Shown: positions 745 to 19,856 of the stretch, one piece after another
Layout: each line of letters begins with the position of its first letter
Numbering within the stretch: position 1 is the stretch's first letter
IMG/VR virus record: IMGVR_UViG_3300001487_000052
Coordinates: 1 to 37,502 of that record
Strand: one strand, 5' to 3'
DNA from: a virus
Taxonomy: Duplodnaviria > Heunggongvirae > Uroviricota > Caudoviricetes
DNA: 37,502 nt
Position numbers and translations under genes: made by a program
Notes under the pieces: model-generated
Database searches by the model: none
The model's input: only the letters and a program-made list of their open reading frames with translations
Told to the model about the DNA's origin: nothing

Positions 745-805
745 AAGGATAAAAATTCCTTTATTTTTCTAAACTGAACTCTGTATTAACTAAAATATTA
801 AAAAT

Positions 806-2854
806 ATGAATAAACAAACTATTATTGTACCAAAGGGAATTAGGTATATTAGTGAGTGGGATAAATTAGAGACTGGTAAAAGACTAAGAGATAAACTGCC
901 TCAGGATGCTCCCTACATAATGAACAAAACTATTACTGGATGTGGTTACACCGAGTATTGTATTACTAACTCATTTCCTACGATTATCTGTTCACCTCGA
1001 TTAGTTCTTTTAGAGAATAAAGAGGACCAGCATAAAGACATGGAAAATCTTCTGTATCTAAGAAACGAATATGATACTTTTGAATCTTTCGATAAAGATA
1101 TTTCTAAGGATGATGATAAGGGACTTCATACAGAACCAAAAGAAAAGAGTGAAGAAGAAAAGAAGAAGGCAGAAGAATATACTAAGTATTTAAAAAAGAA
1201 AATTCGAGATCATATTGAGCTTTGTTATTTTAAACTTCATAAAAGTCCAAAATTCCTTGTTACTTATGATTCTTTTAGGAGAATTAAAGAAGAGCTAGGA
1301 GAATCTATCAATACTTATCAAGTAGTCGTAGATGAATTTCAATCAATTTTTTGTGATAGTCGTTTCAAGTCTGATACAGAAAATAATTTCCTTTTGAATA
1401 TTCGAGGTCTTAAAAAAGTATGCTATTTATCAGCTACCCCTATGATCGACAAATATTTAGAGATGCTGGATGAATTTAAAGATCTCCCCTACTATGAACT
1501 TGATTGGGCTACTGAAGATCCTGGTAGAGTAATTAAACCCTACCTAAAAACTAAACTGATTACTCCGAAAAAAAGTTTGGTTGGTGAAGTATGTAAGATT
1601 GTAAATACTTACAAGGAAGGAAAATTTGAAAAGATAACACGAGCCTCGGAAGACGGATCATTTGAAGAGGTGTATAGTAAGGAAGCTGTTATCTATGTTA
1701 ATTCCGTAAAGAACATCTGTGATATTATTCGAAAGTGTGAGCTGACTCTAGAAAACACTAACGTTCTTTGTTCAGATGATCCGGAAAATGAAAAGAAGGT
1801 AAAATCTGCTTTCAAAAAGAGCGATACTACAATAACAAAGGATACTAAGTGCATTGGTAAAGTCCCAAAAGAGGGTGAACCCCACAAGATGTTTACCTTA
1901 TGTACTAGAACAGTTTATCTTGGGGCGGACTTTTATTCAACCAATGCTAGATCATTTATATTTAGTGATGCTAATGTAGATTGCCTTTCAGTTGACATTA
2001 CTCTCGATCTTCCCCAAATTCTAGGTCGTCAAAGGTTAGAAGAAAATCCTTGGAAGAATAGAGCAGAGCTTTACTATAAACTAAATACGAAAGAGATTAG
2101 TCAAGAAGAATTTAAAATATACCTAGACAAAAAAGAAGAGGCCACTAATAGACTGTTAAGTGCATTTGAAAAGGTTAGTAGAGAAGAACAGCACGAATTA
2201 GCACTAACCTATAGAAGAGATGCAAAACGGAGTAGCTATAGATATAATTTTGTAGCCGTTGATGAGCATTCTGGATCTGATCTTAAACCTATCTTTAATA
2301 ATCTAGTAATGATATCTGAAATGAGATCGTTCGACGTTCAACAGATAGATTATAAGGATAGATTTAGTGTTTTTACTACTCTAACAGAAAGCGCTTATGT
2401 AAATGATATAAATCAACACCTAGACCATATTTACTCTCTTACCTATTTATCTGATAAGTTTAAATATATTTGTTCACTAGATGATTCCACTATTTCATCT
2501 TGTTTGCCACATCTTCCAGAAATCTTTACTAACTACTATACCGTATTAGGTTCAGAGAGAATTAGAGCTTTGGGTTATAATATTACCGACATGAAAAGAG
2601 AATATGAGGGTGTGATAGGTAACCAAAATATTGATATTAAATCAATCATTCTCAGCTCGTTTAATGTTGGGGGAAGATACACTAAAACCTCTATTAAAGA
2701 AAAACTATCATCAATATACAGTTCATCTGGTTATTCTAAGACTCCTAAAGCAACAGACCTAGAGAACTACTTTGAGGTTAGTGTCTGTAGAATTCCCAAT
2801 AAAGAAACTGGTAAAAGAGATGCTGGATATGAAATTTTGAGTATTAAAGAGTAG
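806..2854 (+). CDS. SF2 (DExD/H-like) helicase-related protein with degenerate Walker A, copy 1
   Basis: 682 aa. Motif I-like TITGCGYT, motif II VVVDEFQ, motif III YLSATP, motif V TRTVYLGADF, motif VI PQILGRQR. Paralogue of 16577..18664. Confidence 0.75.
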   Translation: MNKQTIIVPKGIRYISEWDKLETGKRLRDKLPQDAPYIMNKTITGCGYTEYCITNSFPTIICSPRLVLLENKEDQHKDMENLLYLRNEYDTFESFDKDISKDDDKGLHTEPKEKSEEEKKKAEEYTKYLKKKIRDHIELCYFKLHKSPKFLVTYDSFRRIKEELGESINTYQVVVDEFQSIFCDSRFKSDTENNFLLNIRGLKKVCYLSATPMIDKYLEMLDEFKDLPYYELDWATEDPGRVIKPYLKTKLITPKKSLVGEVCKIVNTYKEGKFEKITRASEDGSFEEVYSKEAVIYVNSVKNICDIIRKCELTLENTNVLCSDDPENEKKVKSAFKKSDTTITKDTKCIGKVPKEGEPHKMFTLCTRTVYLGADFYSTNARSFIFSDANVDCLSVDITLDLPQILGRQRLEENPWKNRAELYYKLNTKEISQEEFKIYLDKKEEATNRLLSAFEKVSREEQHELALTYRRDAKRSSYRYNFVAVDEHSGSDLKPIFNNLVMISEMRSFDVQQIDYKDRFSVFTTLTESAYVNDINQHLDHIYSLTYLSDKFKYICSLDDSTISSCLPHLPEIFTNYYTVLGSERIRALGYNITDMKREYEGVIGNQNIDIKSIILSSFNVGGRYTKTSIKEKLSSIYSSSGYSKTPKATDLENYFEVSVCRIPNKETGKRDAGYEILSIKE

Positions 2855-2880
2855 GAGATAATATTTCTTCTACTCTTCTT
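2847..2880 (+). terminator. Intrinsic terminator after helicase-like gene 1
   Basis: AAGAGTAGGAGA / TCTTCTACTCTT stem followed by a T-rich run. Confidence 0.65.
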
Positions 2881-2916
2881 TCAAATCCTTCTTTCACACT
2901 CTCCACAAACTCAAAA

Positions 2917-2923
2917 CCTTATA
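2917..2923 (+). promoter_or_regulatory. CCTTATA phage promoter motif for the MoxR-VWA operon
   Basis: AAAACCTTATAAGAG, about 50 nt upstream of ATG 2973. The motif recurs at other transcription-unit starts. Confidence 0.55.
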
Positions 2924-2972
2924 AGAGAATATAAAATTAACAAAACATCAAAAAATACAAAAACATTAAAAA

Positions 2973-4848
2973 ATGGCAATTAAAAAGCAAGATTCAATTA
3001 ATGTGAGAATTTTCATGGCTCTCAAGGTTTCTGAGATGTCGAATGTTCCTGCTTTGATCATGTCTAACCCCGGTTTATAACTTAAGCCGCATATAGCAGT
3101 AATGTTATAATGAAAAGTGGGCAAATACGGTGAAGTCTGTGATGATAATACCGTGTTAACTAATGAAATTGCGCAAGGTTCATTAGTAGCGTAGAGCGTA
3201 GGAGGTGAATAAATATAATCCTCCCAAGAGTGTCCACCAGCCTCTAATAATAGGAGGTTGAAAATGTACGCCGAGCAATCATTAATTAAGAAGTGGTTGA
3301 GCTAGGGGATAAAAAGCCCTTAGGATAACAAAACTGGTTGGAAAGACAAGTACTATAGAGATGTACGCAAAACTCAGGAAAGACGAGAAGGGGAGACCTA
3401 TGGATGTTGTAGTTCTTCGTGGTAACTCTGAAAGTCCCGAAGCGATCCATGGCTATGAAACTGTCTCAACCGCACCTGTAAAACCTGGCGAACCTGTTAT
3501 TTCTTCTCATACTCGTCCTTCGTGGATGCAGAGGATTCTTGACAACTATGCGCAGGGTATCAGAACTATCTTGTTTTTGGATGAGCTCACGACGGCCAAT
3601 GAGTATGTACAGGCTGCTTTGTTGATGCTGATTTTTGACAGGAAGTGTGGTGTAGAGAGTTTGCCGCCGATTTCTCATTGTCTTATTGTGGCTGCGGGTA
3701 ACTATATGAACAACCTGACAACCTCTATGACTATGATTTCGCCGGTTCTCAATCGTTTCATGATTTTCAATGTAACTCCCTCTGTTGATGACCTTGGGGA
3801 TTTTCTCTGTAAGTATAAAGGAGCGATGACGAGTGGTAAGATTGTAGACCACTTAGACGAGGTAGAGAAGCAGTTGGAGGCTCTAGACAAACAGGAGCTT
3901 ACGATTAGTGAGACGAATTATAACAAGATCGGAGAGTATTTTGAGAAGTCCATTTCAGAGACTACCCGACTCTTGATGACGAAAGCTGGAAAAATTGATC
4001 TTTCTGTGACTAACCTGAAGGATCTTTATGGTGACGTTGATGATGACGATCCCAATCTTTACGGTTTTCCCACTTTCCGAACCTTGAATTATCTTCGTGA
4101 TATTAGTATTGCCTGTTATAAGTGTTTTGGAAAGCATGGTATTCAGTCCGATAATTTCCGCGCCATGATAAATGGGTTATGTGGTGTAGGTCTTACGAAA
4201 GAAACTAAGGGCTCACAGGTTATTATTAAAACCCATAAAATCGGCGCGGACTATCATGAATCGTTGACTAAGACCGCTGTTGAACTGGATAAATTAGCAA
4301 GCTCCAAACTCCCCGAATATATTGACTATTTTAACGGGATGATTAACACTGCGACTTCCACTGACCGTCCTGCAAAGACTCGTGGTAAATTCAGTACCCC
4401 CGAACTCCAAGCTTTCAAGAATAAGCTGGATGAGATGTGTAAGGATTCGGAGATGAAGAGTATAGAGAAGCCGTTAGAAGCTGATCTTGTTGCTAAGTTA
4501 GGGGATATCTTAAATGATTCTTCTAAGTTTATCCCGACCCTGAAGTATGATACTACTACTGACGGATCTGATCTGAATAAAGCTTTGGCTGATGCTGGAC
4601 TTACTGTAGAGGTTGCTGCTGGTTATGTTGCCACTTGGAATGACTTAACCAGAGCCTACAACATGATGCACAGATTCATTAACCTTGATCAGTGGAATTA
4701 TCCTACCTCAACTAAAGATATCGTCTCCACTCTCGGAAAACAACTGGGAAAGACGGGAATGAAGTTGAAGGCAATGAAGCGTATCATTCAGACTGCTACC
4801 CCGGGGAGTGGAAATCTTATTCCTGAAATTGAATCTATCGTATCGTAA
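2973..4848 (+). CDS. MoxR-like AAA+ ATPase, spliced: exon 1 2973-3074, exon 2 3337-4848 (537 aa)
   Basis: Joining the exons restores Walker A LIMSNPG|VGKTS in frame. Walker B ILFLDELTT, sensor VAAGN and SPVLNRF lie in exon 2. Adjacent to a VWA gene. The ORF-track start at 3361 misses the N-terminus. Confidence 0.88.
3075..3336 (+). ncRNA. Group I intron (262 nt, no internal ORF)
   Basis: 5' exon ends in U, paired U.G with IGS AAGCCG (P1), and the intron ends in G. P3 GTGGGCA/TGTCCAC, P4 ACGGT/ACCGT, P6 CTAATGAA/TTCATTAG, P7 G(A)GCGTA/TACGCC, P7.1 GGAGG/CCTCC, P8 CAGCCTC/GAGGTTG, P9 hairpins CAATCAT/GTGGTTG and CTAGGG/CCCTTAG. Confidence 0.9.
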
Positions 4849-6917
4849 TGAAACGGACAAAAGCTGAATTAGAACTCATTAAAAACTTCATAGACAATAC
4901 CTACTCGCGTTTTGGAATGAGGTTGTTGGTAAATGCTGATAAAGTATATGACCCAACAGACCCAAATTCCGCCTTAGGTTATTGTTTCAAGTATACGGAT
5001 CCTGTTCTTGGGAGTGTTGTATATAAGATTGAGTGCTCTAAGATTGGTATTGAACATACTGATTATAGAGTCTTAATGCATGAATACGGACACATCTACT
5101 TGGGACATCTTGAAGGAATACATGAGGACCTAGATGCTCAAATCTGCCTCACTCTCGATCAATATAGAGAGGAATTAATAGAGGAGATTAATCAGAAGTG
5201 CGGTATAGATTTTGCTGATAAACTTCTGGAGCGTATTATAGATGATCCGCAACTCAATCACAGTCTTCATAATATAGCTATGGACATGGAGGTTAATTCT
5301 AGTGTCTTATCTATAGAGGACCTTGATGAGATGGAGATGGATATAAGTTCTGTGATGCCTAAGTATGAAGAGGAAATGCTTAAGTACTTAGGGGATCATA
5401 CAGAGGACGAAGAGATTAAAAAGCAAATCCAAGACCAGCTAAACAAATACCAGTCTGAGTCTAAGATTAAGCTTATCCATCCTACACGTTATTGGTTAGA
5501 TGAGAATAATCCCTTCCCTGACAACCTGACTTATCCTGAATACCTCCTCCTTATCATCCAGCACCTTGATCAGTTTGTAAAGATGTTGGTTTCGATTAAG
5601 ATGGGAGGAAATGGTGACACTTCTCAGGTTTCACAACAGGATATTCAGGATGCTCTCAATAACATTCTCGATAAACTCCAAGGAAAATCAGAAGCATACA
5701 AGCAAGGATATCGAGATGCTATAAGAGATGCACAACAGAACGGTCAGGGTCAACAGCAAGGTCAGCCCCAGCAAGGACAAGGAAATCCGCAACAAGGAAT
5801 GGGAATGCCTGGTCAAAGTCAAGGTCAGGGTCAACCTACGCCTGGCGGAGGAGCTGGACAGGGGCAACCTCAACAGCAACAGGGAGGTGGTAGTGGTCAA
5901 GGTAATTCTCAAGACCAAGCCGACTATGAACAAGGATACCAAGACGCCCTAAGAGACATGGCCAATGCACAAAACGGTAATGGTCAAGGTCAGGGTCAAG
6001 GAGGTATGCAGAGTCTTTCGGATCTCATGAATGATATGGGTATGACTGATTCTGGAAGTAACGGAAATAGTCAACCTGGAAGTGGGCCTCAAGGATCTAG
6101 TCAACCTGGGGGATCTGGAAAGCCTACGAATGATGGTAGAACAGAGAATCCCTATAAAGGCATGAGAGAGGATCCCACCCAAAATCCCAACTATTCGAAA
6201 GACCATAGAACTGATTCTCGAGATGAAGCAGACAAAAAGCGTGAACTCGGACAGATTCATTCTAAAGGTGGTCTAGGTTGTGGATCTGGTGGTGGTCCTG
6301 GATATACGAGAGAGGTTGAGAAAGACTTGGATGATGTTGAGATGGCACTACAGGAGGTTATGCAAAATGTGAAGAAGAGAGTTGTTAAGATGGCTACTAC
6401 TAAGGACAATATGAAGAACTATAATCGTGGTATCATACGTACTGTTATAGCTCCGAGTTTTAGTAGGAAGATCACGATTTGCAATGAACCTAAAATTGTA
6501 TACCTCATTGACATTTCCGGATCTATGGACACCAGACTTATTGATAGATGCTTAGGAACTATCGCAAGAAGTATGAAAAAGCTCAGTCGTGGTCTTAAGT
6601 ATGATATCATTACCTGGAGCACATGTCTAGGGGAACACATTAGAGACATTGACCCAAGACACCCAATAACAAAGGTATCTGGGGGAGGTGGAACTAGCAT
6701 CGGACGTGGAATTCAATACTTTAAGGACAACTATGGACCTGAAGCTATTCTAGTCATTATATCCGATTTTGAAGACTATCTTGAAGAGTGGCATGCTGTA
6801 GAAAGTACTATGGATAACTACTCTATGTATGGCTTCAACTACGGAAACGGAAGCTGGTATGATAGTTCTAAAATTGACTGGAAAAATCTTAAGGTTCGCA
6901 AATTTAAGGACTATTAA
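4848..6917 (+). CDS. MoxR-associated metallopeptidase-like / VWA domain protein (DUF2201-type architecture)
   Basis: 689 aa. N-terminal HEYGH (HExxH), central Gln/Gly-rich linker, C-terminal MIDAS YLIDISGS, GGGGT and ISDFE. Translationally coupled to MoxR (TAATG). Confidence 0.85.
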   Translation: MKRTKAELELIKNFIDNTYSRFGMRLLVNADKVYDPTDPNSALGYCFKYTDPVLGSVVYKIECSKIGIEHTDYRVLMHEYGHIYLGHLEGIHEDLDAQICLTLDQYREELIEEINQKCGIDFADKLLERIIDDPQLNHSLHNIAMDMEVNSSVLSIEDLDEMEMDISSVMPKYEEEMLKYLGDHTEDEEIKKQIQDQLNKYQSESKIKLIHPTRYWLDENNPFPDNLTYPEYLLLIIQHLDQFVKMLVSIKMGGNGDTSQVSQQDIQDALNNILDKLQGKSEAYKQGYRDAIRDAQQNGQGQQQGQPQQGQGNPQQGMGMPGQSQGQGQPTPGGGAGQGQPQQQQGGGSGQGNSQDQADYEQGYQDALRDMANAQNGNGQGQGQGGMQSLSDLMNDMGMTDSGSNGNSQPGSGPQGSSQPGGSGKPTNDGRTENPYKGMREDPTQNPNYSKDHRTDSRDEADKKRELGQIHSKGGLGCGSGGGPGYTREVEKDLDDVEMALQEVMQNVKKRVVKMATTKDNMKNYNRGIIRTVIAPSFSRKITICNEPKIVYLIDISGSMDTRLIDRCLGTIARSMKKLSRGLKYDIITWSTCLGEHIRDIDPRHPITKVSGGGGTSIGRGIQYFKDNYGPEAILVIISDFEDYLEEWHAVESTMDNYSMYGFNYGNGSWYDSSKIDWKNLKVRKFKDY

Positions 6918-7474
6918 TGATTGAGAAGAGCAGAATACAAGAACTAATTAAAGTATTTTATCAACAGCCTTTCAAGATCTTCTATGTAAACTCGGTAGAT
7001 GGAGAAACATTTATAAAGCCCACAGGATTATTCATTAGCCTAGGACTTACAACATCGATGAGAACAATAGAAGGACTTAGGGATGTGATTTCCAATACAT
7101 ATCCGGAAAGTAATCCTCTTGTCGTGGAGCTTTCTAGTAAGTGTATGACAGGAGATCAATACCTGAATACTATAACAGACAATCAAAATCCACAACCCTA
7201 CGTCATTAGTGAGTTTCCAGAGGATTCATTTGATAAGACTATGGCGGAGAATGAGTTGGTGAAGCTTAGAGAGATGATCAGAGAAAACAAAAATACTACT
7301 CTCTTAGCCGCCACTCAAAAACTCCAAGAACTCATAGATAGACTAGGACAAGGTGATGGTTGGGAAACTCACAGAATCATAAAACTAGACTCCGATTACA
7401 AGATTTTTCATAAAGTTGCCAATTATAAAAGAGAGGGTAACTTGGAGCTTAGGATCGGAATTTATGTAAAGTAA
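6917..7474 (+). CDS. Hypothetical protein, third gene of the MoxR-VWA operon
   Basis: 185-aa ORF, TAATG-coupled, followed by a terminator. Confidence 0.75.
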   Translation: MIEKSRIQELIKVFYQQPFKIFYVNSVDGETFIKPTGLFISLGLTTSMRTIEGLRDVISNTYPESNPLVVELSSKCMTGDQYLNTITDNQNPQPYVISEFPEDSFDKTMAENELVKLREMIRENKNTTLLAATQKLQELIDRLGQGDGWETHRIIKLDSDYKIFHKVANYKREGNLELRIGIYVK

Positions 7475-7483
7475 AACAAACAA

Positions 7484-7523
7484 AAAAGAAATAATTGATA
7501 GTAAAATACCAGTTATTTCTTTT
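7484..7523 (+). terminator. Intrinsic terminator
   Basis: AAAAGAAATAATTG / CAGTTATTTCTTTT stem with a T tract. Confidence 0.65.
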
Positions 7524-7538
7524 ATTTATTTAAGGACT

Positions 7539-8168
7539 ATGAAAAATTGGATAAAAATATTAATCGCCTTAGTCCTTGGTTTTATTATAGGTTTGATAGT
7601 TATAAAACCCAAGACAACTATAGAAGAGGTAACTATAGAAAAACCTGTATATTACCAAGACTTAGTTACGATACATGACCTGGAAAACTTGGTGGAACAG
7701 AAAAACTTAGAAATCCGGGAGTTAAAGAATAGGGTCCAGGAGGTAAAAGAGGTTGTTATTATAGAGAAAGAACAAATACAAAAACTTCCTCCTGATTCTG
7801 GTGTAGTAAAACTTAGGGAATTTTTAAAGGGTTATACAGAAACCCCCTTAGATACATTCCCCACACTTACTTCAGATTCTCTAGTTCTTCTTGATAATGA
7901 AAACCTGAGAGATATAAATAGTGTCTTTATGGATTATTTCGGAGCTGTAGAAATTATGTTTGATCAAGAAGAAATTATATACAACGATTCAATAGTTATA
8001 GGAAGTCTTGATTCTATAATAGGAATTGAAACAGGGATAAAAGAAAACTTAGAGACAGCACTAACCCGAGAGAAGAAGAGAAAGAATATCTGGATGGGGG
8101 TTGGAATTGGTGCTACGATTACTACTTTAATATTAGGAGTGCTTAGTTATGGTAGAAGTGGTAATTAA
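7539..8168 (+). CDS. Membrane-anchored coiled-coil protein (spanin-like topology possible)
   Basis: Hydrophobic N-terminus (WIKILIALVLGFIIGLIVI), coiled coil, hydrophobic C-terminus (IWMGVGIGATITTLILGVL). Confidence 0.55.
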   Translation: MKNWIKILIALVLGFIIGLIVIKPKTTIEEVTIEKPVYYQDLVTIHDLENLVEQKNLEIRELKNRVQEVKEVVIIEKEQIQKLPPDSGVVKLREFLKGYTETPLDTFPTLTSDSLVLLDNENLRDINSVFMDYFGAVEIMFDQEEIIYNDSIVIGSLDSIIGIETGIKENLETALTREKKRKNIWMGVGIGATITTLILGVLSYGRSGN

Positions 8169-8553
8169 TTATGACGTAGAAAATAAGTTGTACAAGGCAT
8201 ATGAACCAAGTACCGACACATTATTCGTTACTTCAAGCTTAGGAGACACATTTAATAAACTAGAAGCCCATCTTTTACAATTTGGTCTCATTGCTGGTTC
8301 ATTACTGTCTGAGCAAAATATAACATACCACCTAGACTCCCCTACTTTTATAGCCATTGTTCAGAGTAATGCAAATCTTCTGAAACGACTAAATAATGCT
8401 CCTTCCGGTTTTATGGTTAGTTCTCAGAGACTTGGATTAGGAACAGGACAACAGGTGGGAGGTGACTGGAAAAAACGAGGACAACGAAAGAATAATGGTA
8501 CTTTTTCTAAATCAAATCTAGGAAATGCAAGTAAAAAATTTGGAGAGAAATGA
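8149..8553 (+). CDS. Hypothetical protein
   Basis: 134-aa ORF in an overlapping-gene operon. Confidence 0.7.
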   Translation: MVEVVINYDVENKLYKAYEPSTDTLFVTSSLGDTFNKLEAHLLQFGLIAGSLLSEQNITYHLDSPTFIAIVQSNANLLKRLNNAPSGFMVSSQRLGLGTGQQVGGDWKKRGQRKNNGTFSKSNLGNASKKFGEK

Positions 8554-10374: not shown

Positions 10375-10543
10375 GAAAGTTAGAAAAGCAAGTCAGGCTA
10401 GACCTAGAACAGGTGGACTTGGAAAAAGACCAAATACTAGCCACGTAAAACAAGTCGCTAAACATGAGAAAGACCCCATGGCTGACAAAGTAATAGGATC
10501 TGAACTCGATAGTGATGATATTGATGTTATAATACTAAATTAA
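10367..10543 (+). CDS. Small hypothetical protein (58 aa), not in the ORF track
   Basis: MVKKVRKASQARPRTGGLGKRP...DIDVIILN; exactly fills the gap between its neighbours. Confidence 0.6.
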   Translation: MVKKVRKASQARPRTGGLGKRPNTSHVKQVAKHEKDPMADKVIGSELDSDDIDVIILN

Positions 10544-10550
10544 CAAGAAG

Positions 10551-10940
10551 ATGAACATAATAAACAAATTACAGGTGGTATTTAAACCAGGAGGAAAGCT
10601 TAGTTCTGATGATCTTAACTCCCTGGTAACAGCAATTAATACCCTCAACTACACAGTAAATAACATCCTAAAAAGCTACTGTGATATTAATCAGGAAACT
10701 GGTGTACAAAAGGCCTATACTCTAGGGGAAGCTATTAAACTCGTCCCGGAAGGTAGAAGAAGCTTTACTATGAAAATCAGGTTTATCGAAAATGCTGATA
10801 TTGTTGGTGCTAATATCTATAACATTAGATATGCTGAATACTACTACACCGGTCCTAAGGCTTTTGATAATAGAACCTGGGAAAATGAAGCAAACTGGAC
10901 TAAGAGCGTCCCTAACCTAATTGATGGAGGTACTTGGTAA
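10551..10940 (+). CDS. Hypothetical protein, possible virion/tail-fibre-associated
   Basis: N-terminal FKPGGKLSSDDLNSLVTAI resembles fibre-anchor motifs. Confidence 0.5.
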   Translation: MNIINKLQVVFKPGGKLSSDDLNSLVTAINTLNYTVNNILKSYCDINQETGVQKAYTLGEAIKLVPEGRRSFTMKIRFIENADIVGANIYNIRYAEYYYTGPKAFDNRTWENEANWTKSVPNLIDGGTW

Positions 10941-11185
10941 TGAAAGGAAGTAGCTATAAGGAAACAGAATGGAAGAATGGAGAAACGAGACTCAATGCTA
11001 AAAATATGAACAACATTGAGGCTGGCATAAAGACTCTCTTCGAAAATGCTATTGACCAAGATACAGTAGAAGTCGTATATGAAGCTCCCGCAGAACCTGA
11101 TAATAGTAAGCTGTATTTTGTAATAGATGATGAGAATGTTTTAACTAGACTTATTGTTTTCGGAAAGGAGATTATAGTAAGATGA
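10934..11185 (+). CDS. Hypothetical protein, possible tail-fibre/baseplate-associated
   Basis: YKETEWKNGETRLNAKNMNNIEAGI resembles the W..G....A..LN.IE.GI motif of phage fibre/baseplate proteins. Confidence 0.5.
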   Translation: MVMKGSSYKETEWKNGETRLNAKNMNNIEAGIKTLFENAIDQDTVEVVYEAPAEPDNSKLYFVIDDENVLTRLIVFGKEIIVR

Positions 11186-11748
11186 CTTGGGATATTGAAA
11201 CTTGTTATTATGAGTATCAAGAAGCAACATCCTATCTTCTCAAGTCTCTAGGAATAACACAACTAGATCACGTAAAAAATAGAGAAGTCCTTTATCCTTA
11301 TTACACTCAGATTATAAAATATCTAAACCGTGAATTGATGTGTAATACGGAGGACAATATAAAAGCTAAGGTCCAGAAAATAATTGAACTAATGGATGCT
11401 GGTTCTGAGAAAATCTGTACAACTAGAGCAAGAGAACTAGGTGAAGAAGTTGGAATTGAAGTGACCTCTGAATACTATGACCAGGATAGATTTGTATTTT
11501 CTTGGGCTGATCTTATGGGTACCTTAAGTCTCCGCTTAAAATTCCAGTATGCTTATCTTTGGAAACAGGAATATGATGATAGCTGTGGTTGTACTTGTGG
11601 TAAGGGACAAACTGAAGAAGACTATGAATCTTGGGTTTCTGGCGTATATCCGGAAGATTATGAATACGATAGAACAAACTATTACCGGACTAATACAAAT
11701 TGGGGAACCAGTGAAGATAGGATTTGTGACTGTTATAAGAAGAATTAA
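11182..11748 (+). CDS. Hypothetical protein with Cys-rich acidic C-terminus
   Basis: 188-aa ORF, ATGA-coupled, ends at a terminator. Confidence 0.7.
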   Translation: MTWDIETCYYEYQEATSYLLKSLGITQLDHVKNREVLYPYYTQIIKYLNRELMCNTEDNIKAKVQKIIELMDAGSEKICTTRARELGEEVGIEVTSEYYDQDRFVFSWADLMGTLSLRLKFQYAYLWKQEYDDSCGCTCGKGQTEEDYESWVSGVYPEDYEYDRTNYYRTNTNWGTSEDRICDCYKKN

Positions 11749-11752
11749 AAAG

Positions 11753-11788
11753 AAAGGTAGAAAGGATTATATTTCCAATCTACCTTTT
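11753..11788. terminator. Bidirectional terminator between convergent genes
   Basis: AAAGGTAGA / TCTACCTTTT stem with A and T flanks. Confidence 0.65.
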
Positions 11789-12046
11789 TATTATCACCTC
11801 TGCACCAGGTAACCCACTAAGACGATTAATTCTGTTGGCAAGGCTTTCTTTACATATTACAGTACTAAAGCCCATAAAAGTTTTTGTCATTACCTTAGGG
11901 GATAATCTTTTTCTAGGGACTTTCATCACCTTCTTAACATATTCTTTATAGTTGGTTTTGTCTTGTGTAGGAATGAAAGCATGAATCTTATATACTAGAT
12001 CTCCATTAGATAATGAAAATCTTAGCAATAATACTCTAGTTTTCAC
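11780..12046 (-). CDS. Small basic hypothetical protein (about 88 aa, GTG start)
   Basis: Part of track ORF 11780..12148. The GTG lies 3 nt downstream of a minus-strand CCTTATA. Confidence 0.5.
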   Translation of the reverse strand: MKTRVLLLRFSLSNGDLVYKIHAFIPTQDKTNYKEYVKKVMKVPRKRLSPKVMTKTFMGFSTVICKESLANRINRLSGLPGAEVIIKR

Positions 12047-12049
12047 ATG

Positions 12050-12069
12050 TATAAGGCTTTTCCTTATAA
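12050..12069. promoter_or_regulatory. Back-to-back CCTTATA promoter pair
   Basis: TATAAGG-cttttt-CCTTATA between divergent genes. Confidence 0.6.
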
Positions 12070-12074
12070 GTGTA

Positions 12075-12638
12075 ATGTACTTAGTTATTTTAGAAATTAC
12101 GTTAAATGAGAAAGGGAAAAAGCTAAGAGGAAAAACAGACACTCCCATAATCTATTACCTGAGTGAAGAGAAGGCCTTTAATATGGACGAAGCTTCAGAA
12201 GAAATTTTTAAGCAGATTGGTATAGATGTGGTGGATACTTTTAATCATCTTAAAACCATTCCTCTTCCTGGAAAACCTCTAGAAAATATTAAGACTGGAG
12301 ATTATGTTAGAGTATTAAAACTTGGAGATAGTACAGTTTCAATCATCCTAGGAACTACAAAAATTATAAAAACACTAGGAGATAACTCTGTAGAAACCTT
12401 AAATCCATTCATAATCTTCGATAACCAAGGAATTTGTATCCATAAGGGAACATGTGATTGTGTGGCCTACTATCTACAACAAACAGAAGAGAAAGACTTA
12501 GAGGAGGCAAAAAGGAAGGACTCTATAATACTTGCTAGGAATGAGGTGTCTTCATTTTTTATGAGAAAAGCCAATGTTGATAAGTTGGAGGGAGATGATG
12601 TTCTTTCTATATATGAGATTATAAAAAAAATATTATGA
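12075..12638 (+). CDS. Hypothetical protein, tandem paralogue 1 of 3
   Basis: Shares ITLNEKGKKL, IG..VVDTF..LKTI, GD.V, F...G.CI and YL..TE blocks with the next two ORFs. Confidence 0.75.
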   Translation: MYLVILEITLNEKGKKLRGKTDTPIIYYLSEEKAFNMDEASEEIFKQIGIDVVDTFNHLKTIPLPGKPLENIKTGDYVRVLKLGDSTVSIILGTTKIIKTLGDNSVETLNPFIIFDNQGICIHKGTCDCVAYYLQQTEEKDLEEAKRKDSIILARNEVSSFFMRKANVDKLEGDDVLSIYEIIKKIL

Positions 12639-13192
12639 TAATCCTAGAGACGTGTAAACAGTTTATAGTATTCATAAAAATCCTTCTTAATGGGGCGGGA
12701 CAAGAATTACTAGGGAGAAGCATTCATGTTATCTATACTGTCAGAAATTCCCCTGCTCTCGACATATCAGAAGTAGTTGATATAGTTTATGAAAAAGTAG
12801 GTCCCCAACTTGTAGATAACTTTGAAATAATAAAATCAATACCGAGGACATTTTATGTAAATCCTCAGAATCTAATAAAAGGGGACTACATCATCATCCA
12901 TAAACACTTCTACTCTTTTGACACAATGAGGTTTAGGGGAATAATAGAGGGTGTACAGAATAAACACATTACTGTTTGTGGCCACCAGTTTTCATTAGAT
13001 GGTGTTTGTATAGAATACGACCCTGGAATAATTTCTATATATCACCTAGAAGCACCAACGGATGAAGAGATGGAGGAATATATAGAGACGGCAAGAAGAG
13101 AAGAATTATTGAAGGAAATATCCGGGAAATTATCTCGTAGAACCTTAGGAACACTAGAAAAAGTAAATAAATTCTTAGACGAAAATGGATAG
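12635..13192 (+). CDS. Hypothetical protein, tandem paralogue 2 of 3
   Basis: ILLNGAGQEL, VGPQLVDNFEIIKSI, KGDYI, FSLDGVCI, HLEAPTDEE. Confidence 0.75.
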   Translation: MIILETCKQFIVFIKILLNGAGQELLGRSIHVIYTVRNSPALDISEVVDIVYEKVGPQLVDNFEIIKSIPRTFYVNPQNLIKGDYIIIHKHFYSFDTMRFRGIIEGVQNKHITVCGHQFSLDGVCIEYDPGIISIYHLEAPTDEEMEEYIETARREELLKEISGKLSRRTLGTLEKVNKFLDENG

Positions 13193-13790
13193 AGTATATA
13201 TAGTAAAAATTAAGCTTGGAGAAAAAGCTAAGAAACTTTGTTATAGAAATGAGGTTCTTGTTCCTATCTCATCCCAAGGTAGACTGGACTATTATGAGAT
13301 CCTAGACTCAGTAGGAAATCAGTATGGAGCGGATAATGTAGTGTCTCTAGAGGTCCTTCATACTATTTTTCCTGACTTCGAGTTCTTACAGTCCTTAAGC
13401 CCACATACATTAGTTGCTGTAAGAAAACTCCATGAGGTCCTTAAACACTCTACAAATCTTTATAATAATGAAAATGGGAGTGAGATTTTTGAGGTTAATG
13501 AGATTTTTGATAGAGAAAAAGAAGGGCGTAAAATAGTAAGAACAGATAGTTGGTCAGATTGTTGTTTTTATATGGATACTGGACTATCTGAACCCGGAGA
13601 AATTATTACAAGCCCCTATGAAATAAGTTTTTTAGATAAACCAACAGAAAGAGAGATACAGAACTTTAGAAACAGAAGAGATAAAAACATAAAAGTGGCT
13701 GATATAAAACGGTGGGTAAATAATACTGATGATATAGAAATAATTAATACGGTTTGGGATATAATAAATAAAAAAGAAGAAGGAAATTAA
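13185..13790 (+). CDS. Hypothetical protein, tandem paralogue 3 of 3 (more diverged)
   Basis: IKLGEKAKKL, YGADNVVSLEVLHTI, FLDKPTERE. Confidence 0.7.
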   Translation: MDRVYIVKIKLGEKAKKLCYRNEVLVPISSQGRLDYYEILDSVGNQYGADNVVSLEVLHTIFPDFEFLQSLSPHTLVAVRKLHEVLKHSTNLYNNENGSEIFEVNEIFDREKEGRKIVRTDSWSDCCFYMDTGLSEPGEIITSPYEISFLDKPTEREIQNFRNRRDKNIKVADIKRWVNNTDDIEIINTVWDIINKKEEGN

Positions 13791-14710
13791 TCCTTCTCTT
13801 TATTTTTGTTCTCCGAAATCATCTTTACGAGAGAACCATATTTTGCAATTAATTCATCCTTAGCCTCATCTCCCCACATAGTATGAACGAGAACCCCATG
13901 TTTGTGTAAGGAGATTATAAATGGATCTTCAGGGCGGACACGAATTCTCACGCTCTCTATCTTATTTATCATCTCTTTTTCAGGGGCCGCTATGAAGAAA
14001 TCATTACTGAGTTCCCCACTTCCACGATATTGTTTAGTAGTAATGTCTCCATGATTCCAATACTCCGGAAAGTATGCGTTAAATAAATCTCTACCTTGCC
14101 AGATATAATTAGCATTTTCGAAACATTGCTCAGGAGATATATTTCTAGCTATAAACGGGAATCTATGAATAAACTCAAATGCTGGGGTCTTTTTTATCGC
14201 CCTCGCATCCTCTCTTCCGTCTCGATTAAGAGAAATCCCCTGTATTTTCCAATAGTGCACAGAATAGTCAATAATATCTTTATGTACCAGGTTTTTCCTA
14301 GTTTCCAAAAGGATATTAATACTATTCTCTGGGATAGTACCTGTAAAATCCCTAAGATAACCTACAACAAGATTATATTTCACCAAGAGCTCTAAGAACC
14401 GAGGATAACTTATGAAAATTATATTATCCCCGAAGACCTCTATAGCCTTTGTGAGAAACCTTAGGGCCTCGATGTTAAAAGCTCTCTGTTTCTTAGTCTC
14501 CTGTTCCGCCTTAAAAATCCCTTCTATCATCTTTGCATTTGTCGTATTAACCAGGCCGAGTTGTTGTAGCGCCTCTAGCTCTGTACCCGCATTAGGAGGA
14601 ATTATAATGGACTGGAGATCACTTTCAAGTTCCTGCGCATAACTTAAACCGGCCTTAGATATCGACGTATGAATAACTTTAGCCGAAATACTTTTTGTAA
14701 TTCCAAACAT
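13787..14710 (-). CDS. Hypothetical phage protein
   Basis: 307-aa ORF with its own CCTTATA promoter; C-terminal DPFI..GVLVHTMWGDEA block. Confidence 0.75.
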   Translation of the reverse strand: MFGITKSISAKVIHTSISKAGLSYAQELESDLQSIIIPPNAGTELEALQQLGLVNTTNAKMIEGIFKAEQETKKQRAFNIEALRFLTKAIEVFGDNIIFISYPRFLELLVKYNLVVGYLRDFTGTIPENSINILLETRKNLVHKDIIDYSVHYWKIQGISLNRDGREDARAIKKTPAFEFIHRFPFIARNISPEQCFENANYIWQGRDLFNAYFPEYWNHGDITTKQYRGSGELSNDFFIAAPEKEMINKIESVRIRVRPEDPFIISLHKHGVLVHTMWGDEAKDELIAKYGSLVKMISENKNKEKD

Positions 14711-14727
14711 AATTTTTCTTCTTTCTA

Positions 14728-14750
14728 TATAAGGCGTTGAGATCCTTATA
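14728..14750. promoter_or_regulatory. Back-to-back CCTTATA promoter pair
   Basis: TATAAGG-cgttgagat-CCTTATA between divergent genes 14710(-) and 14757(+). Confidence 0.6.
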
Positions 14751-14756
14751 AATGAT

Positions 14757-15278
14757 ATGAAAAAGACATCGATTGTATTGATTATTGTAGCAGCTTTTAT
14801 TGCTATTATTGTTGGTATGTATTTCTCTTACAACAATAAAGAAGTATCCCTAAGAAATCAGTCAGACGCACAGATTGGAAAAATAGAAGGAGTATATGAT
14901 AAGATGTGGAAGGTGATACAACAAAAAGCACAAGTAACATCTGAATATAAAGACGCATTTAAAGAAATCTATCCAGAACTTATAGCCGGTCGTTATTCTG
15001 GGGAGTCTATGATGAAGTGGATCCAAGAAAGCAACCCCGAATTTGATGCTTCCCTGTATAAAGATCTGATGCAAAGTATAGAAATCCTTAGAACAGAATT
15101 CCAACACGCACAAGAAAAAGAACTCGACATAATAAGAGAACATAAGAATCTCTGTTCTACATACCCAGGAAAATGGTTTGTTTCTAAGAAGGAACCAATC
15201 GAATATACAATCATTTCCTCCACCAAGTCTAAAGAAACTATGGAAACCGGACTTGATGATGATATAAACGTTTTCTAA
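14757..15278 (+). CDS. LemA-like membrane-anchored helical protein
   Basis: Single N-terminal TM helix, helical body, C-terminal YPGKWFV similar to the LemA FP..F motif; paired with a downstream membrane protein. Confidence 0.5.
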   Translation: MKKTSIVLIIVAAFIAIIVGMYFSYNNKEVSLRNQSDAQIGKIEGVYDKMWKVIQQKAQVTSEYKDAFKEIYPELIAGRYSGESMMKWIQESNPEFDASLYKDLMQSIEILRTEFQHAQEKELDIIREHKNLCSTYPGKWFVSKKEPIEYTIISSTKSKETMETGLDDDINVF

Positions 15279-16363
15279 TGGAACTTCTCATTTACATAAT
15301 TCCCATCTTAGTGTCTCTTGGTTTTTTAGTGTTTAAAGCTAGGGAGACAGTTTGGTGGGAATACTTACTTTTAATTGGAGGTTCAGTTCTTCTCGCATTC
15401 CTCCTAAAACAAATCATCGTAAGTATTAAGACAAGTGACCTAGAATACCTTAGTGGGTATGTAACCCAAACAACCTACTATGAACCCTGGAATGAAGAGG
15501 TCGAGGTTACAAAGACTAGAACAAACAGTGAGGGAGAAGATGAGGTTTACACCGAAACTGAAACTAGATATCACAGCGCAGAATATTCTTACAGGACTAG
15601 TATGAAGCGAAGCGAGGTGTGGTGTTCTAGAGATTATCATGAGGCGCTGAAAAAACAGTTTCGAGTTGGTGGTGTGTTTAGAGATATGCATAGACACTAC
15701 CACACACAAGACGGAGATGCTTATGACTACTTCTGGGATGGGACTGACGAAACTATGAAGACTATAACTGAGGTTGGGACTTATAGGAACCCGATGAAAG
15801 GAAGTAGGTCGATCTTTAAATTGAGTCGAGAAGATAGCACACTCTTTAATTATCCGGTGCCAGAGAGAAGGGGAGATCAAAAGGTGGTTCTGGGAAATGC
15901 TAAGTACGACTCTAGGCCTATCCAAATCCTAAATGCAAAACTGGGAAAACAATATCAGGTTCATGTCTTCGTTCTCCTGTTCTATAATGCTGGTCCGGAG
16001 ATAGCAGAAAGACAAAAAGAATATTGGGAAGGAGGAAATAAAAATGAACTTGTGGTGTGCTTGGGAATGAAGAGAGATAGTATTCAGTGGTGTAGTCCGT
16101 TTTCTTGGAGTGAAAGCCCGGTAGTAGAAACGAGGATAAAATCATGGTGCCTAGAAAACCCAAGACTAGATATAAAAGAACTAGCGGGAGAATTAGAGAA
16201 GGAGATAAAAAAGGACTGGAAAAGAAGAGAGTTTAAGGATTTCAATTATATAGAGACTGAATTGGGAGGAGGAGATTACATTATTATCCTGGTCTTAGTT
16301 CTGGCTTATATAGTGGGAATCGGAATATGGATAACAAAAAATGAATACAGCAACTTGGATTAA
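15278..16363 (+). CDS. Membrane protein with soluble alpha/beta domain (TPM-like possible)
   Basis: Two N-terminal TM helices, one C-terminal TM helix, YWEGGNKNELVVCLG block; TAATG-coupled to the LemA-like gene. Confidence 0.55.
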   Translation: MELLIYIIPILVSLGFLVFKARETVWWEYLLLIGGSVLLAFLLKQIIVSIKTSDLEYLSGYVTQTTYYEPWNEEVEVTKTRTNSEGEDEVYTETETRYHSAEYSYRTSMKRSEVWCSRDYHEALKKQFRVGGVFRDMHRHYHTQDGDAYDYFWDGTDETMKTITEVGTYRNPMKGSRSIFKLSREDSTLFNYPVPERRGDQKVVLGNAKYDSRPIQILNAKLGKQYQVHVFVLLFYNAGPEIAERQKEYWEGGNKNELVVCLGMKRDSIQWCSPFSWSESPVVETRIKSWCLENPRLDIKELAGELEKEIKKDWKRREFKDFNYIETELGGGDYIIILVLVLAYIVGIGIWITKNEYSNLD

Positions 16364-16541
16364 TTTAATAGTTATATCCAGTCTTATATTGGCTGGGATC
16401 TTTTTTATGTTATTATTGTTAACTGTTTTTTATGAACCCGCCAAGAGAAAGACGACAAAGATTGCGATTTATGCTGTGGTTAGTCTAGTAGTGTGGTGGT
16501 TTATAATTGCAGGTATTGGTATGTTTTTTGTAGTAGAGTAA
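16341..16541 (+). CDS. Small two-TM membrane protein
   Basis: 66 aa; two hydrophobic segments separated by KRK. Confidence 0.6.
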   Translation: MNTATWINLIVISSLILAGIFFMLLLLTVFYEPAKRKTTKIAIYAVVSLVVWWFIIAGIGMFFVVE

Positions 16542-16544
16542 ATA

Positions 16545-16578
16545 AAAGAAGGGGATAGAAATTAATCTTCCCCTTTTT
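16545..16578. terminator. Bidirectional terminator
   Basis: AAGGGGA / TTCCCCTT stem with A and T flanks between convergent genes. Confidence 0.65.
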
Positions 16579-18664
16579 ATTTCTTTTTTATTATTTCAAA
16601 TCCATGTACCTTCTTTCCATCCTCCATAAACTGACAATCTCGTAATTCAAAGTAGTCATTCAGGTCAGATGCTTTTGGAGTCTTAGATATGTTGTGTGTA
16701 GTATAAAAATTAGCTAACATCTCTTTTATTTGCTTTTTCGAATACTTATCCCCTATGTTAAATAGAGATTTTATACCTTCTCCGTTTATAACTTCCGGAT
16801 TTATATATCTAATAATATTTGACTCTTTATAACCAAGGGCTCTAATTTTCTCAAACCCAAGTAAGTTTATGTAATTTTGGTATGATAGTGGAATTATAAC
16901 TTGTAGTGGAGAATTAGCGTACTGGATATAGATGGTTGGGTATTGAAAGTAAACATCACACAACAACTTCATTCTTCTTTCAAAATTATTATCTTTATCA
17001 AATTCAGAAACGAGATTATCATAAACACTACTCAATTCATTAACAGATAAAGTGTCATCCACAATATTGACAGACCCTATACTCTCTATTCCTCTTCTAA
17101 TAGTGATATCATCTTGGTACTCTTTTCTACTAACATCATAAGCTCTCTGATCTGCTACTTTAACTAGATAATTAAACATAGCCTTTCCAGTCCGACCCGA
17201 AACTCCAAGATAATCGTTTTTATATAGACTTTTAGCATCCGCAGCTTTTTCGGCCCACAATAGTTTACCCCTATCAGACATTTTACTATACTCCTCTAGT
17301 AGTTCTTGAGTTTTCTCCAACTTAACCTTTACCTTTTCATCATTTACTAGCTTCTTCTCATTTATTATTGCTCCCTTTTTTGTCTCAGCTTTATAGAGAA
17401 TTAATACTTCATTTCTAAACACATTCTCCTTTAGTCTCTGTCTTCCAAGTATTTGAGGGAGATCAAGAGAAATATCTACAGTAAGCGTTTGAATATTACA
17501 GTCAGAACAGACAACAGTAAAGGCTGAGGTAGAGTAGAAATCCGCTCCAAGATAGGTAGTTCTAGTACATAATGTGAACATTTTATGGGGCTGACCGTAA
17601 GTAGGTATATTTCCTATTTGATGTCCTATTTTCTTCAGCTTATTTATATTCGTTGAAGAGTCAGCACATATAATATTTGTTTCTTCTGGAGTTAAATTAC
17701 ATTTTCTGATAATATCACAAATGGATCTAATAGAATTGACAAATATTACTAGTTCTTTGGATTCCTTTAGTTCTCCATTAGAAAGAATTTTATTAGGGAA
17801 CCTGCCCTCTCTATAATCTGTGATAATTTCTCCAACCCTTTTATTAATATTCCTCACGGTTTCTCTCTGGATTCTTACATTCTCTACTCTAGAACTGCTC
17901 CAAATAAACTTAAAAAATCTAAGGTCTTTGAAATAATCTAGTTCAACTAAGTACTTTTCTAACATTGGAGTAGCAGATAGGTAAAGAACATTTTGACATT
18001 GTTTTAAATCCTCTACAAAATCTAATTCCACTGTAGCTTTAAATGATGCATCCATGAAAATTGATTGAAATTCATCTACTACAATACAATAGGAATTAGA
18101 GGAGTAGTATTCATTAAGAACATCTAAGACATGGTGTAAAGAGTCATAGGTAACAATAATTTTAAATGGATTGCTATGACTAATTCCATGTGATTCTACA
18201 TAAGAACGAAGTTGGTTTTTTATTGGAGCTAAATAATCTTTTCTCTCTTTCTTGTTTATGTTAATTAAATTTTCCTGTTCTTCTATTTCTGCAACATAGT
18301 TAGAGGAGGAAGAAGAGGGGAGTATATTATCAAATGGAGTTTTTAATTGTTCTTCTCCTCTATTACTGTCATAGTCTATATTATTTTCATAGTCATTTCT
18401 GAAATAATATACAGGTCTCATCTCTGGATTCTCTCCATTATTATGCTGTTCTTCTTTGTTTTCTAATAATTTTTTCCTTGGAGAACAAAGAACAAGTGGA
18501 ATAGAATTATTTAAACAGTATTCAGTAAATCCACATCCACAAATAGTTTTATCGAGAATTAAATGACCTAGAGGATATTCAAAATCATCCCATTCACTAA
18601 TATATTCAATATTCTCTGGTACATTAATAGGTATAACATTCATTTTCTTTTCTTCTTCATTCAT
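16577..18664 (-). CDS. SF2 helicase-related protein with degenerate Walker A, copy 2
   Basis: 695 aa. TICGCGFT, IVVDEFQ, YLSATP, TRTTYLGADF, PQILGRQR; C-terminal SKTPKASDL..YFE shared with copy 1. Confidence 0.75.
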   Translation of the reverse strand: MNEEEKKMNVIPINVPENIEYISEWDDFEYPLGHLILDKTICGCGFTEYCLNNSIPLVLCSPRKKLLENKEEQHNNGENPEMRPVYYFRNDYENNIDYDSNRGEEQLKTPFDNILPSSSSSNYVAEIEEQENLININKKERKDYLAPIKNQLRSYVESHGISHSNPFKIIVTYDSLHHVLDVLNEYYSSNSYCIVVDEFQSIFMDASFKATVELDFVEDLKQCQNVLYLSATPMLEKYLVELDYFKDLRFFKFIWSSSRVENVRIQRETVRNINKRVGEIITDYREGRFPNKILSNGELKESKELVIFVNSIRSICDIIRKCNLTPEETNIICADSSTNINKLKKIGHQIGNIPTYGQPHKMFTLCTRTTYLGADFYSTSAFTVVCSDCNIQTLTVDISLDLPQILGRQRLKENVFRNEVLILYKAETKKGAIINEKKLVNDEKVKVKLEKTQELLEEYSKMSDRGKLLWAEKAADAKSLYKNDYLGVSGRTGKAMFNYLVKVADQRAYDVSRKEYQDDITIRRGIESIGSVNIVDDTLSVNELSSVYDNLVSEFDKDNNFERRMKLLCDVYFQYPTIYIQYANSPLQVIIPLSYQNYINLLGFEKIRALGYKESNIIRYINPEVINGEGIKSLFNIGDKYSKKQIKEMLANFYTTHNISKTPKASDLNDYFELRDCQFMEDGKKVHGFEIIKKK

Positions 18665-18727
18665 AATTTAATTTGTTTTAGATGTATACTATTTCAAGTA
18701 TACGTTATAATCATTTTCTTATTTATT

Positions 18728-19370: not shown

Positions 19371-19379
19371 CGAAGACTT

Positions 19380-19841: not shown

Positions 19842-19856
19842 AACACATATAAGGGT

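Follow-up and report, generated by a model that had tools for sequence, protein, structure and literature searches.

Lysine-less SF2 helicase-like genes and their upstream non-coding tracts form repeated units in huge gut phages: candidate origin-plus-initiator modules

The 37,502-nt window analysed here (IMG/VR virus record IMGVR_UViG_3300001487_000052, positions 1 to 37,502) carries two genes for helicase-like proteins of superfamily 2 (SF2), each preceded by a long non-coding tract, and we find that gene and tract form a unit that is repeated in this virus and in its relatives. The window makes up the initial 37.5 kb of a viral contig of 101.5 kb, for which CheckV gives a completeness of 27%; as the genomes of relatives reach 367-401 kb, the contig is a fragment of a huge phage, and the contigs derive from bovine and animal-gut metagenomes, which indicates a rumen or gut provenance. 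The host is probably Prevotella or another member of the Bacteroidales. We read the units as cis-linked modules in which a replication origin is joined to the gene for its own initiator, and we give this reading a probability of roughly 0.4. It rests on the affinity of the proteins to origin-binding SF2 helicases, on their winged-helix-type end, on inverted repeats of a DNA type and, in our main comparison genome (G001, a 367-kb relative that is 93% complete), on even spacing and a residual GC skew.

Copy 1 (806-2854, plus strand) encodes a protein of 682 residues, in which an SF2 core of two RecA domains is followed by a helical domain and then, at about residues 611-680, by a C-terminal module resembling a winged helix, and copy 2 (16577-18664, minus strand) encodes one of 695 residues. 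An earlier note on this DNA had described them as two paralogues. The paralogy is borne out by BLASTP (37% identity over the full length, E 5e-135), but the count is not, as the contig holds a third copy (contig 68912-71005, plus strand) that is 73% identical to copy 2. Copies 1 and 2 do share the SF2 motifs and the C-terminal block SKTPKA(T/S)DL..YFE that were ascribed to them, with DEFQ, SATP and QILGRQR present in both. The proposed copy count gave three in the contig and seven full copies in G001, where they constitute the largest paralogous family of the genome. None of these helicase-like proteins has a match in Pfam, PHROGs, NCBIfam or PADLOC, sequence searches of the PDB (phmmer and a 40-sequence profile) returned nothing meaningful for them, and no description of the family was found in a full-text literature search or in the jumbo-phage papers queried. 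The family is large: more than 5240 proteins match in a 90% collection and at least 1682 clusters match in a 50% identity collection, 401 of these below E 1e-30.

The seven copies of G001 provide the clearest view of how the unit behaves. Their proteins fall into the clusters {c1,c3,c5}, {c2,c7} and {c4,c6}, and these are mirrored exactly by the similarity of their tracts, which shows that gene and tract duplicate together; furthermore, conservation of the tracts equals or exceeds that of the genes (in one example, 86% identity at the nucleotide level, with 79% for the proteins). The repeating cis-element-and-protein unit proposed in the earlier note is thus supported by this co-duplication, by the upstream gaps at 68 of 76 related loci and by the variable loci described below. 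The copies are also evenly spaced, at intervals of about 55 kb (coefficient of variation of the gaps 0.18, against a random mean of 0.83; P ~1e-4), and they alternate in strand, four of the seven units heading a gene block at a divergent junction. The regular interval in a genome of about 370 kb can be read as a set of replication start sites, one per genome segment and each with a private initiator, in analogy to UL9 with oriS/oriL and to the multi-origin chromosomes of archaea. Cumulative raw GC skew in G001 merely follows gene strand. When gene strand is regressed out, a small component of the skew remains that is directed outwards from the closest tract (beta 0.016, t 3.8; equalled or surpassed in 1.5% of circular shifts), and its direction fits, as weak evidence, bidirectional replication from the tracts.

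The gaps ahead of the copies measure 805 nt for copy 1, where the contig end truncates the gap, 715 nt for copy 2 and 534 nt for copy 3, and they rank among the four largest of the contig. Where the gene could be located in relatives, a gap of at least 350 nt (and up to ~1290 nt) lies upstream at 68 of the 76 loci, and tracts of 400-1000 nt are the rule. Tract 2 (18665-19379, minus strand) is 72% identical to tract 3 over 563 nt, and a conserved core of ~250 nt (18872-19147, minus strand) is common to tracts 2 and 3 and to 12 further relatives fetched. Within this core, on the same strand, lie two nested inverted repeats, an outer one of 9 bp (19133-19141 with 19037-19045) and an inner one of 6 bp (19109-19114 with 19051-19056). 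Across the 14 sequences the arms occur as six (outer) and four (inner) haplotypes, each with an exactly matching partner arm, and the paired positions comprise 204 Watson-Crick pairs, no G-U pair and six mismatches; RNAalifold finds double compensatory changes in 10 of 15 pairs. Pairing in the core amounts to 97%; none of 1000 shuffles exceeded 78%, and sliding the register left 15-40%. Tract 2 as a whole folds with z -1.7, sense and antisense equally well. Wobble pairs are completely absent and the two strands fold equally well, and this argues for pairing at the DNA level or for symmetric recognition by a protein, and not for RNA. Where the earlier note saw a hairpin field coupled to each gene, the description therefore holds for tract 2, with its folding score and covarying nested repeats, but not for tract 1.

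This evidence also bears on a reading in which the tract would be transcribed into a large structured RNA that the SF2 protein, acting as an RNA helicase or chaperone, binds or remodels. The closest structural matches of the protein are indeed RNA helicases (Prp2, Z 15.0; eIF4A, 14.2; DbpA, 13.8), the leader hairpins of the genes covary, some with G-U closing pairs and UNCG-like loops, and one contig from an RNA library covers part of tract 1 (position 216). However, DNA helicases (BLM, 13.8; DinG, 13.1) score within ~1-2 Z of the best RNA-helicase matches, the core long-range helices hold 0 G-U among their 204 pairs, and both strands fold equally well. Furthermore, the Rfam 15 scan of the whole window at E 1 found nothing in the tracts, its sole matches being a group I intron at 3065-3275 and, by chance, a snoRNA, and the known promoter would not transcribe the distal tract, since the promoter-like motif is situated downstream of it. 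We regard an RNA-level function as improbable. The helicase genes and tracts have low depth in two true RNA libraries, whose contigs cannot rank expression.

Tract 1 (1-805, plus strand) is non-coding, purine-rich on the gene strand and cut off, because the window starts at contig base 1; orthologous tracts extend at least 250 nt farther upstream. It is ~78% identical to these orthologues, the same level as coding sequence. An 8-bp inverted repeat, GAGGGTTG ... CAACCCTC (193-237, plus strand), is invariant in all six orthologous tracts that reach there, and so offers no variation for a pairing test. The motif CGTAGCGA occurs at 28-35 (plus strand); all five copies in the 101.5-kb contig fall in the three tracts, on the gene-sense strand, those of tract 2 starting at 18986 and 19231, and the motif is absent from the tracts of relatives. 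Other short motif families in the tracts span 12-31 nt at 71-100% identity. Purine richness is not general among relatives' tracts, in which an AT-rich stretch lies between a GC hairpin and the promoter. We considered this GC hairpin as an intrinsic terminator and rejected it, as four of seven cases have no co-directional upstream gene. Viral contigs scanned exactly for a 26-nt piece of the tract 2/3 core gave no match, and blastn of the three tracts against the loci of 80 distant relatives found nothing alignable; apart from the promoter and leader boxes, the tracts diverge beyond recognition at ~45-50% protein identity. Within tract 2 (18938-18954), strain variants in the public runs carry purine-rich insertions of 15-39 nt (GAATGA/GTGAAGG type), from which we conclude that a purine-rich motif array grows and shrinks. 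A further ORF-less (open reading frame-less) gap of 533 nt (19842-20374) is separated from the upstream side of tract 2 by one small gene.

An AlphaFold model built with 40 diverse family members (predicted local distance difference test score, pLDDT, 85; predicted template modelling score, pTM, 0.79) has the two tandem RecA-like domains of an SF2 helicase. Foldseek against the PDB returns Hjm, Hel308, Brr2, WRN and BLM at E ~1e-9, with the herpes simplex virus 1 origin-binding protein (HSV-1 OBP) at rank 20, and the best VIA-align match, Prp2 at the score given above, has a root-mean-square deviation (rmsd) of 4.1 over 318 aligned residues. Comparison with the PDB singles out no SF2 subfamily, generic SF2 helicases scoring alike. 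Among the viral models of BFVD the top match is one close relative without a name, followed by many origin-binding proteins at E 1e-12 to 1e-9, and at least 10 of the top 31 are named origin-binding SF2 helicases, from herpesviruses and giant viruses. A language-model search leads to ResIII/DEAD families, one with a 19% share of Herpes_ori_bp, and the DEAD profile PF00270 is touched by only 8 of the 40 members, at E 0.007 or weaker.

The most unusual feature of these proteins is motif I. It had been read in the earlier note as GCGYT in copy 1 and GCGFT in copy 2, each without the Walker A lysine; this was right, and it extends family-wide, the lysine being absent across the family. All 40 aligned members follow the pattern [ND]-K-x-x-[TCP]-G-C-G-[F/Y/M/L/A]-T, in which the lysine position (Y48 within G45-C46-G47-Y48-T49 of copy 1) is F, Y, M, L or A and always hydrophobic, G45, C46, G47 and T49 are invariant, and an equally invariant lysine, K41, stands four residues ahead of G45, just before the loop. 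The other motifs are kept in the same 40 members. In motif II, D176 of DEFQ is invariant and E177 at least 90% conserved; in motif III (SATP), S209, A210 and P212 are invariant and T211 at least 90% conserved; the motif V residues are invariant, as are Q404, G407, R408, Q409 and R410 of motif VI. That the lysine alone is lost, with the other catalytic motifs invariant, suggests an altered activity and not a dead site, and the pattern of motif I suggests a predicted nucleotide site that has been rebuilt rather than decayed. A lysine-less motif I beside intact catalytic motifs is a biochemical puzzle, and it may reveal an alternative design of the SF2 nucleotide site. The C-terminal helicase cassette of Brr2, a protein among the top Foldseek matches, similarly combines an SF2 fold with a degenerate nucleotide site, but in the present family the loss is confined to the lysine.

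Catalytically altered, diversified look-alikes of helicases might also serve as decoys that titrate or block helicase-based defences of the host. Many diverged paralogues, the missing lysine and a location in variable islands would fit such a role, but a decoy would hardly be expected to keep motifs II, III, V and VI strictly conserved, to retain a conserved cis tract or to be evenly spaced, and the proteins have no similarity to PADLOC defence families. We therefore consider counter-defence very improbable.

Modelled alone, the C-terminal part reaches a pLDDT of 92, and its last ~70 residues run in the order a1-b1-a2-a3-b2-b3, the canonical order of winged-helix elements (DSSP: H184-191, E197-199, H200-214, H222-227, E229-237, E244-253). 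A winged helix, which the earlier note had suggested looking for, is thus seen as a topology in the model, although the best solved match, the RFX DNA-binding domain, has a Z of only 5.7 (rmsd 3.0, 68/76 residues); RFX5, Nse1-Nse3-Nse4 and NrS-1 follow at Z 4.8-5.1, and Foldseek of the C-terminal model finds nothing at E 0.001. By shape, the C-terminal part weakly resembles the C-termini of P4/D5-type primase-helicases in the Atlas (template modelling score, TM, 0.36-0.38). Phage P4 alpha and the D5-type primase-helicases have a C-terminal winged-helix origin-binding domain. The likeness to them lies in a helicase followed by a winged-helix-type module, the C-terminal region of NrS-1 being also a weak PDB match, but theirs are helicases of superfamily 3 fused to a primase, and the scores are too low for a claim of homology.

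Additional support for a portable, DNA-targeting C-terminal module comes from relatives in which ORFs directly downstream of some copies fuse an N-terminal T5orf172/MUG113 domain (PF13455, 24.2 bits, above cut-off) to the last ~160 residues of the helicase-like protein. Examples are found at G001 130983-132026 (L102:10983-12026) and, in the closest relative of the contig (G002), at 86251-87279 (L119:6251-7279). The C-terminal copy is up to 75% identical to that of the adjoining helicase-like gene, and the Atlas contains whole clusters of the same fusion; this contig has no such ORF. We take T5orf172/MUG113 to be a member of the GIY-YIG clan, and the fusion proteins may be nucleases of the homing type, or may compete with the helicase-like proteins for their DNA sites.

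Taken together as origin-plus-initiator modules, the units would work as follows. One half is the DNA element, in which nested inverted repeats and strand-specific short motifs precede a phage promoter with its structured leader; the other half is the gene, whose protein, with SF2 core, helical domain and C-terminal winged-helix-like module, is of a design suited to acting on DNA. The C-terminal module would recognize the repeats of the adjoining tract, and the helicase core, which retains its DExx, SAT and arginine-finger motifs, would remodel or open the DNA there, either through an altered nucleotide chemistry, for which K41 is a candidate lysine substitute, or by ATP-independent clamping. 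Fold, motifs, co-duplication, repeats and spacing are features observed here; binding to the tract, its unwinding and a role in replication are what we infer. The fuller picture, in which gut and rumen phages of Bacteroidota with genomes of ~370 kb have seven to nine regular origins, each fired by a cis-encoded, lysine-less SF2 initiator paralogue, and in which the modules can also move, is one that we put forward more tentatively, as possible but doubtful. If it is true, these would be viruses with multi-origin genomes of an archaeal or eukaryotic kind. To our knowledge, the replication of phage genomes of 350-400 kb is essentially unexplored, and dispersed modules of initiator plus site would make it directly testable in huge phages.

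Several findings weigh against an origin function. Known helicase-type initiators, UL9 and T5 D2, carry the Walker A lysine that this family lacks, and the K405E mutant of T5 D2 is inactive (PMC3632103). The Herpes_ori_bp profile PF02399 has no match in the Pfam scan at E 0.01, nor across the whole contig at E 10, which leaves no homology-based link to known origin binders; the analogy with UL9 drawn in the earlier note has modest support, from the origin-binding neighbours in BFVD and from the winged-helix topology, but none from membership by sequence. The winged-helix match, made with a predicted model, is at Z 5.7 below the level of trust. As for the DNA, tract 1 (1-720) folds no better than its shuffles (z +1.5 sense, +0.9 antisense), so that folding energies give no support for a hairpin field ahead of copy 1, and neither a regular array of iterons, the direct repeats of 17-22 bp of iteron-type origins, nor a clear AT-rich unwinding element was seen in the tracts. 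The residual skew is tiny beside the effect of gene strand (0.016 vs 0.215) and comes from one genome, and spacing is uneven both in the contig (0.8, 17 and 69 kb) and in its closest relative. Finally, the position of the units relative to conserved genes changes, a behaviour not required of origins.

This mobility is best seen in G002, which is collinear with the contig over 21.5-97.6 kb and yet shares only one positionally equivalent unit. Its other units are several genes off or sit at loci that hold unrelated ORFs in the contig, and every unit in this comparison lies inside an island of non-homologous small genes. Similarly, the orthologues of copy 1 (72-84% identity) were compared in six relatives, and their neighbouring genes differ from one relative to the next. 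A tract without its gene also exists. This orphan (G001 27128-28153; L097:7128-8153) has the 16-nt leader box described below but is not followed by a helicase-like gene. It is kept in several related genomes (L020:64-196, L022:892-1024, L038:889-1021, L056:896-1028 and L058:66-198), and the tRNA-like hairpins ahead of it are not called as tRNAs by ARAGORN.

Such shifting positions invite the view that tract and gene are a selfish cassette, spread within and between phages by recombination or homing, with the repeats as recognition or recombination sites, and perhaps helped by the neighbouring nuclease-like protein that has the same C-terminal module. The displaced units and their islands, the orphan tract, the size of the family in G001, the T5orf172/MUG113 fusions directly downstream of some copies and the presence of other homing-type elements in this phage group (the group I intron; a LAGLIDADG ORF in a relative) would all agree with it. 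However, neither the helicase-like proteins nor the scanned ORFs of the window have a nuclease, transposase, integrase or HUH domain, which upholds the statement of the earlier note that no transposase, HUH or integrase motif is visible, and the window has no T5orf172 partner. No target-site duplications and no defined ends were seen, every copy is intact and keeps the invariant motifs, and even spacing with alternating strands argues for selection on position. A purely selfish cassette is in our judgement unlikely; were it correct, it would be a type of mobile element without a recognizable recombinase. Mobility and origin function are compatible, by analogy with the origins of archaea. Inversion of the segment between copies 1 and 2, a further proposal, was not borne out: contigs from four public runs, mapped onto window positions 1-20000, contain no strand-changing joint between the two copies, and inversion is unlikely because these share only 37% protein identity.

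Comparison with known systems places the candidate origin-plus-initiator modules between several precedents. Phages do have UL9-type helicases, as shown by T5 D2 (PMC3632103). Like UL9 and T5 D2 (PF02399), our family has an SF2 core followed by a (here predicted) C-terminal DNA-binding part, and the (here presumptive) target DNA contains inverted repeats; it differs in having no PF02399 match, in lacking the motif I lysine that D2 needs, and in numbering three to seven or more genes in a genome, every one next to an element of its own, whereas several origins are served by the one UL9 gene. In arrangement only, a parallel is provided by the multi-origin chromosomes of archaea, such as Sulfolobus, with oriC1-3 and cdc6-1, cdc6-3 and whiP, and Haloferax, in which the origin-initiator units are thought to be captured mobile elements (PMC1868953, PMC4595724). 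There too, dispersed cis elements with inverted repeats each adjoin a paralogous initiator-like gene, but the archaeal initiators are AAA+ Orc1/Cdc6 or Cdt1-like proteins and not SF2 helicases, the chromosomes are those of cells and not of a virus, and origin activity is in our case presumptive. The mobile side of the units recalls another group of elements. Free-standing homing endonuclease cassettes and plastic regions of the PeSL type are found in T4-like phages. With these the units share islands of fast-exchanged small genes, shifting positions, repeated modules of promoter plus hairpin and, adjoining some copies in relatives, GIY-YIG-type ORFs; they are set apart by a core protein of ~680 residues with a helicase fold and no nuclease domain, and by a cis element of hundreds of bases.

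The proximal part of each tract carries transcription signals. The promoter-like motif YCCTWATAKATGWA lies at 731-744 (plus strand) before copy 1 and, with its first base at 18779 (minus strand), before copy 2, and has only five matches in the 101.5 kb: before the three helicase-like copies and before the genes at 21560 and contig 71118. A promoter motif before both genes had been correctly noted, but it is not private to helicase-like genes. Upstream of it in tract 1 are two GCGACCAGT boxes (613-621 and 698-706, plus strand), and this combination of box and promoter also precedes the genes at 21560 and contig 71118. The shared module is probably one temporal promoter class of the phage. Leader hairpins follow at 742-764 (plus strand, z -3.1) for copy 1, with compensatory changes among orthologues (AAAGGA/TCCTTT vs AGAGAA/TTCTCT), and at 18728-18763 (minus strand, z -4.3) for copy 2; in relatives, leader and box hairpins were assessed by eye. 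When 21 sequences of the proximal 300 nt were aligned, RNAalifold arrived at no consensus structure, because loop lengths differ. A 16-nt box, AACTGAACTCTGTATT, lies in the 5' leader of copy 1 (772-787, plus strand), and its counterpart AACTGRAYTCTRTATT occurs eight times in G001, 47-67 nt before each of the seven copies and in the one orphan tract. Terminator-like hairpins follow copy 1 (2850-2874, plus strand, -9.8 kcal/mol, z -3.0) and, with a U-run, copy 2 (16549-16575, minus strand, -12.9 kcal/mol, z -3.5). The common layout described in the earlier note is therefore confirmed for promoter, leader hairpin and terminator at both copies, with the exception of the hairpin field before copy 1.

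These signals suggest a further interpretation, in which the protein is a self-regulating factor for transcription or chromosome organization and the tract a complex combination of its promoter, operator and 5' leader. Autoregulation would then be the task of the leader hairpins and the 16-nt box, and the paralogues would control different segments of the genome. The small subunit of the poxvirus early transcription factor, an SF2-type protein, offers a comparison. In keeping with such a regulator, the proximal 110-250 nt of every tract consist of promoter-like motif, covarying leader hairpins and the 16-nt box 34-67 nt before the start codon, the promoter class is common to two other genes, four of the seven G001 tracts are divergent promoter regions, and CGTAGCGA is present in all three tracts of the contig and in none of the relatives', as expected of a genome-specific trans factor. 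However, 300-800 nt of conserved distal sequence with nested repeats restricted to Watson-Crick pairs would be left unexplained, as would the even spacing and the invariance of helicase motifs II, III and VI, and we find a regulatory role, by itself, an unlikely account of the units.

The promoter module was also seen at two loci in its own right. At window 21433-21559 and contig 71010-71117 (L003:3572-3679), a GCGACCA box, TGATATGAAAYCCTTATATATGTA and a hairpin are arranged as before copy 1, with unrelated genes downstream, and a three-mismatch variant of the 16-nt leader box (module at 21476) lies ahead of the gene at 21560. In G001, a second paralogous family of six members (13858, 66501, 71917, 235591, 244205 and 293238), likewise unmatched in Pfam and PHROGs, is often found no more than a few kb from a helicase-like unit, and one member ends exactly at the start of tract 6.

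Scans with Pfam, PHROGs and NCBIfam left most genes of the window without a family assignment. The 13.7 kb that separate copies 1 and 2 had been taken as accessory genes; they do not consist of these only, as they also encode two virion-type proteins, a VWA protein and a MoxR-like ATPase whose gene contains a group I intron. Right after copy 1 (window 3361-6917), the MoxR-like ATPase is followed by the VWA-domain protein (PF05762), a classic chaperone-like pair, and non-orthologous MoxR/VWA pairs occur in other orientations near copy-1 orthologues of relatives. The intron, of 262 nt and without an ORF (3075-3336; Rfam score 32.5 bits, below the gathering score), lies within the MoxR-like AAA+ ATPase gene (2973-4848) and splits its Walker A (P-loop) codons. 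Joining 3074 to 3337 restores a single frame of 537 residues (...SNPG|VGKTS...). Contigs of two RNA-seq runs (metatranscriptomes) contain the exact 3074/3337 joint, and in one of these runs the flanking sequence is the same as in the window; an intron-less relative is present in a DNA-type run.

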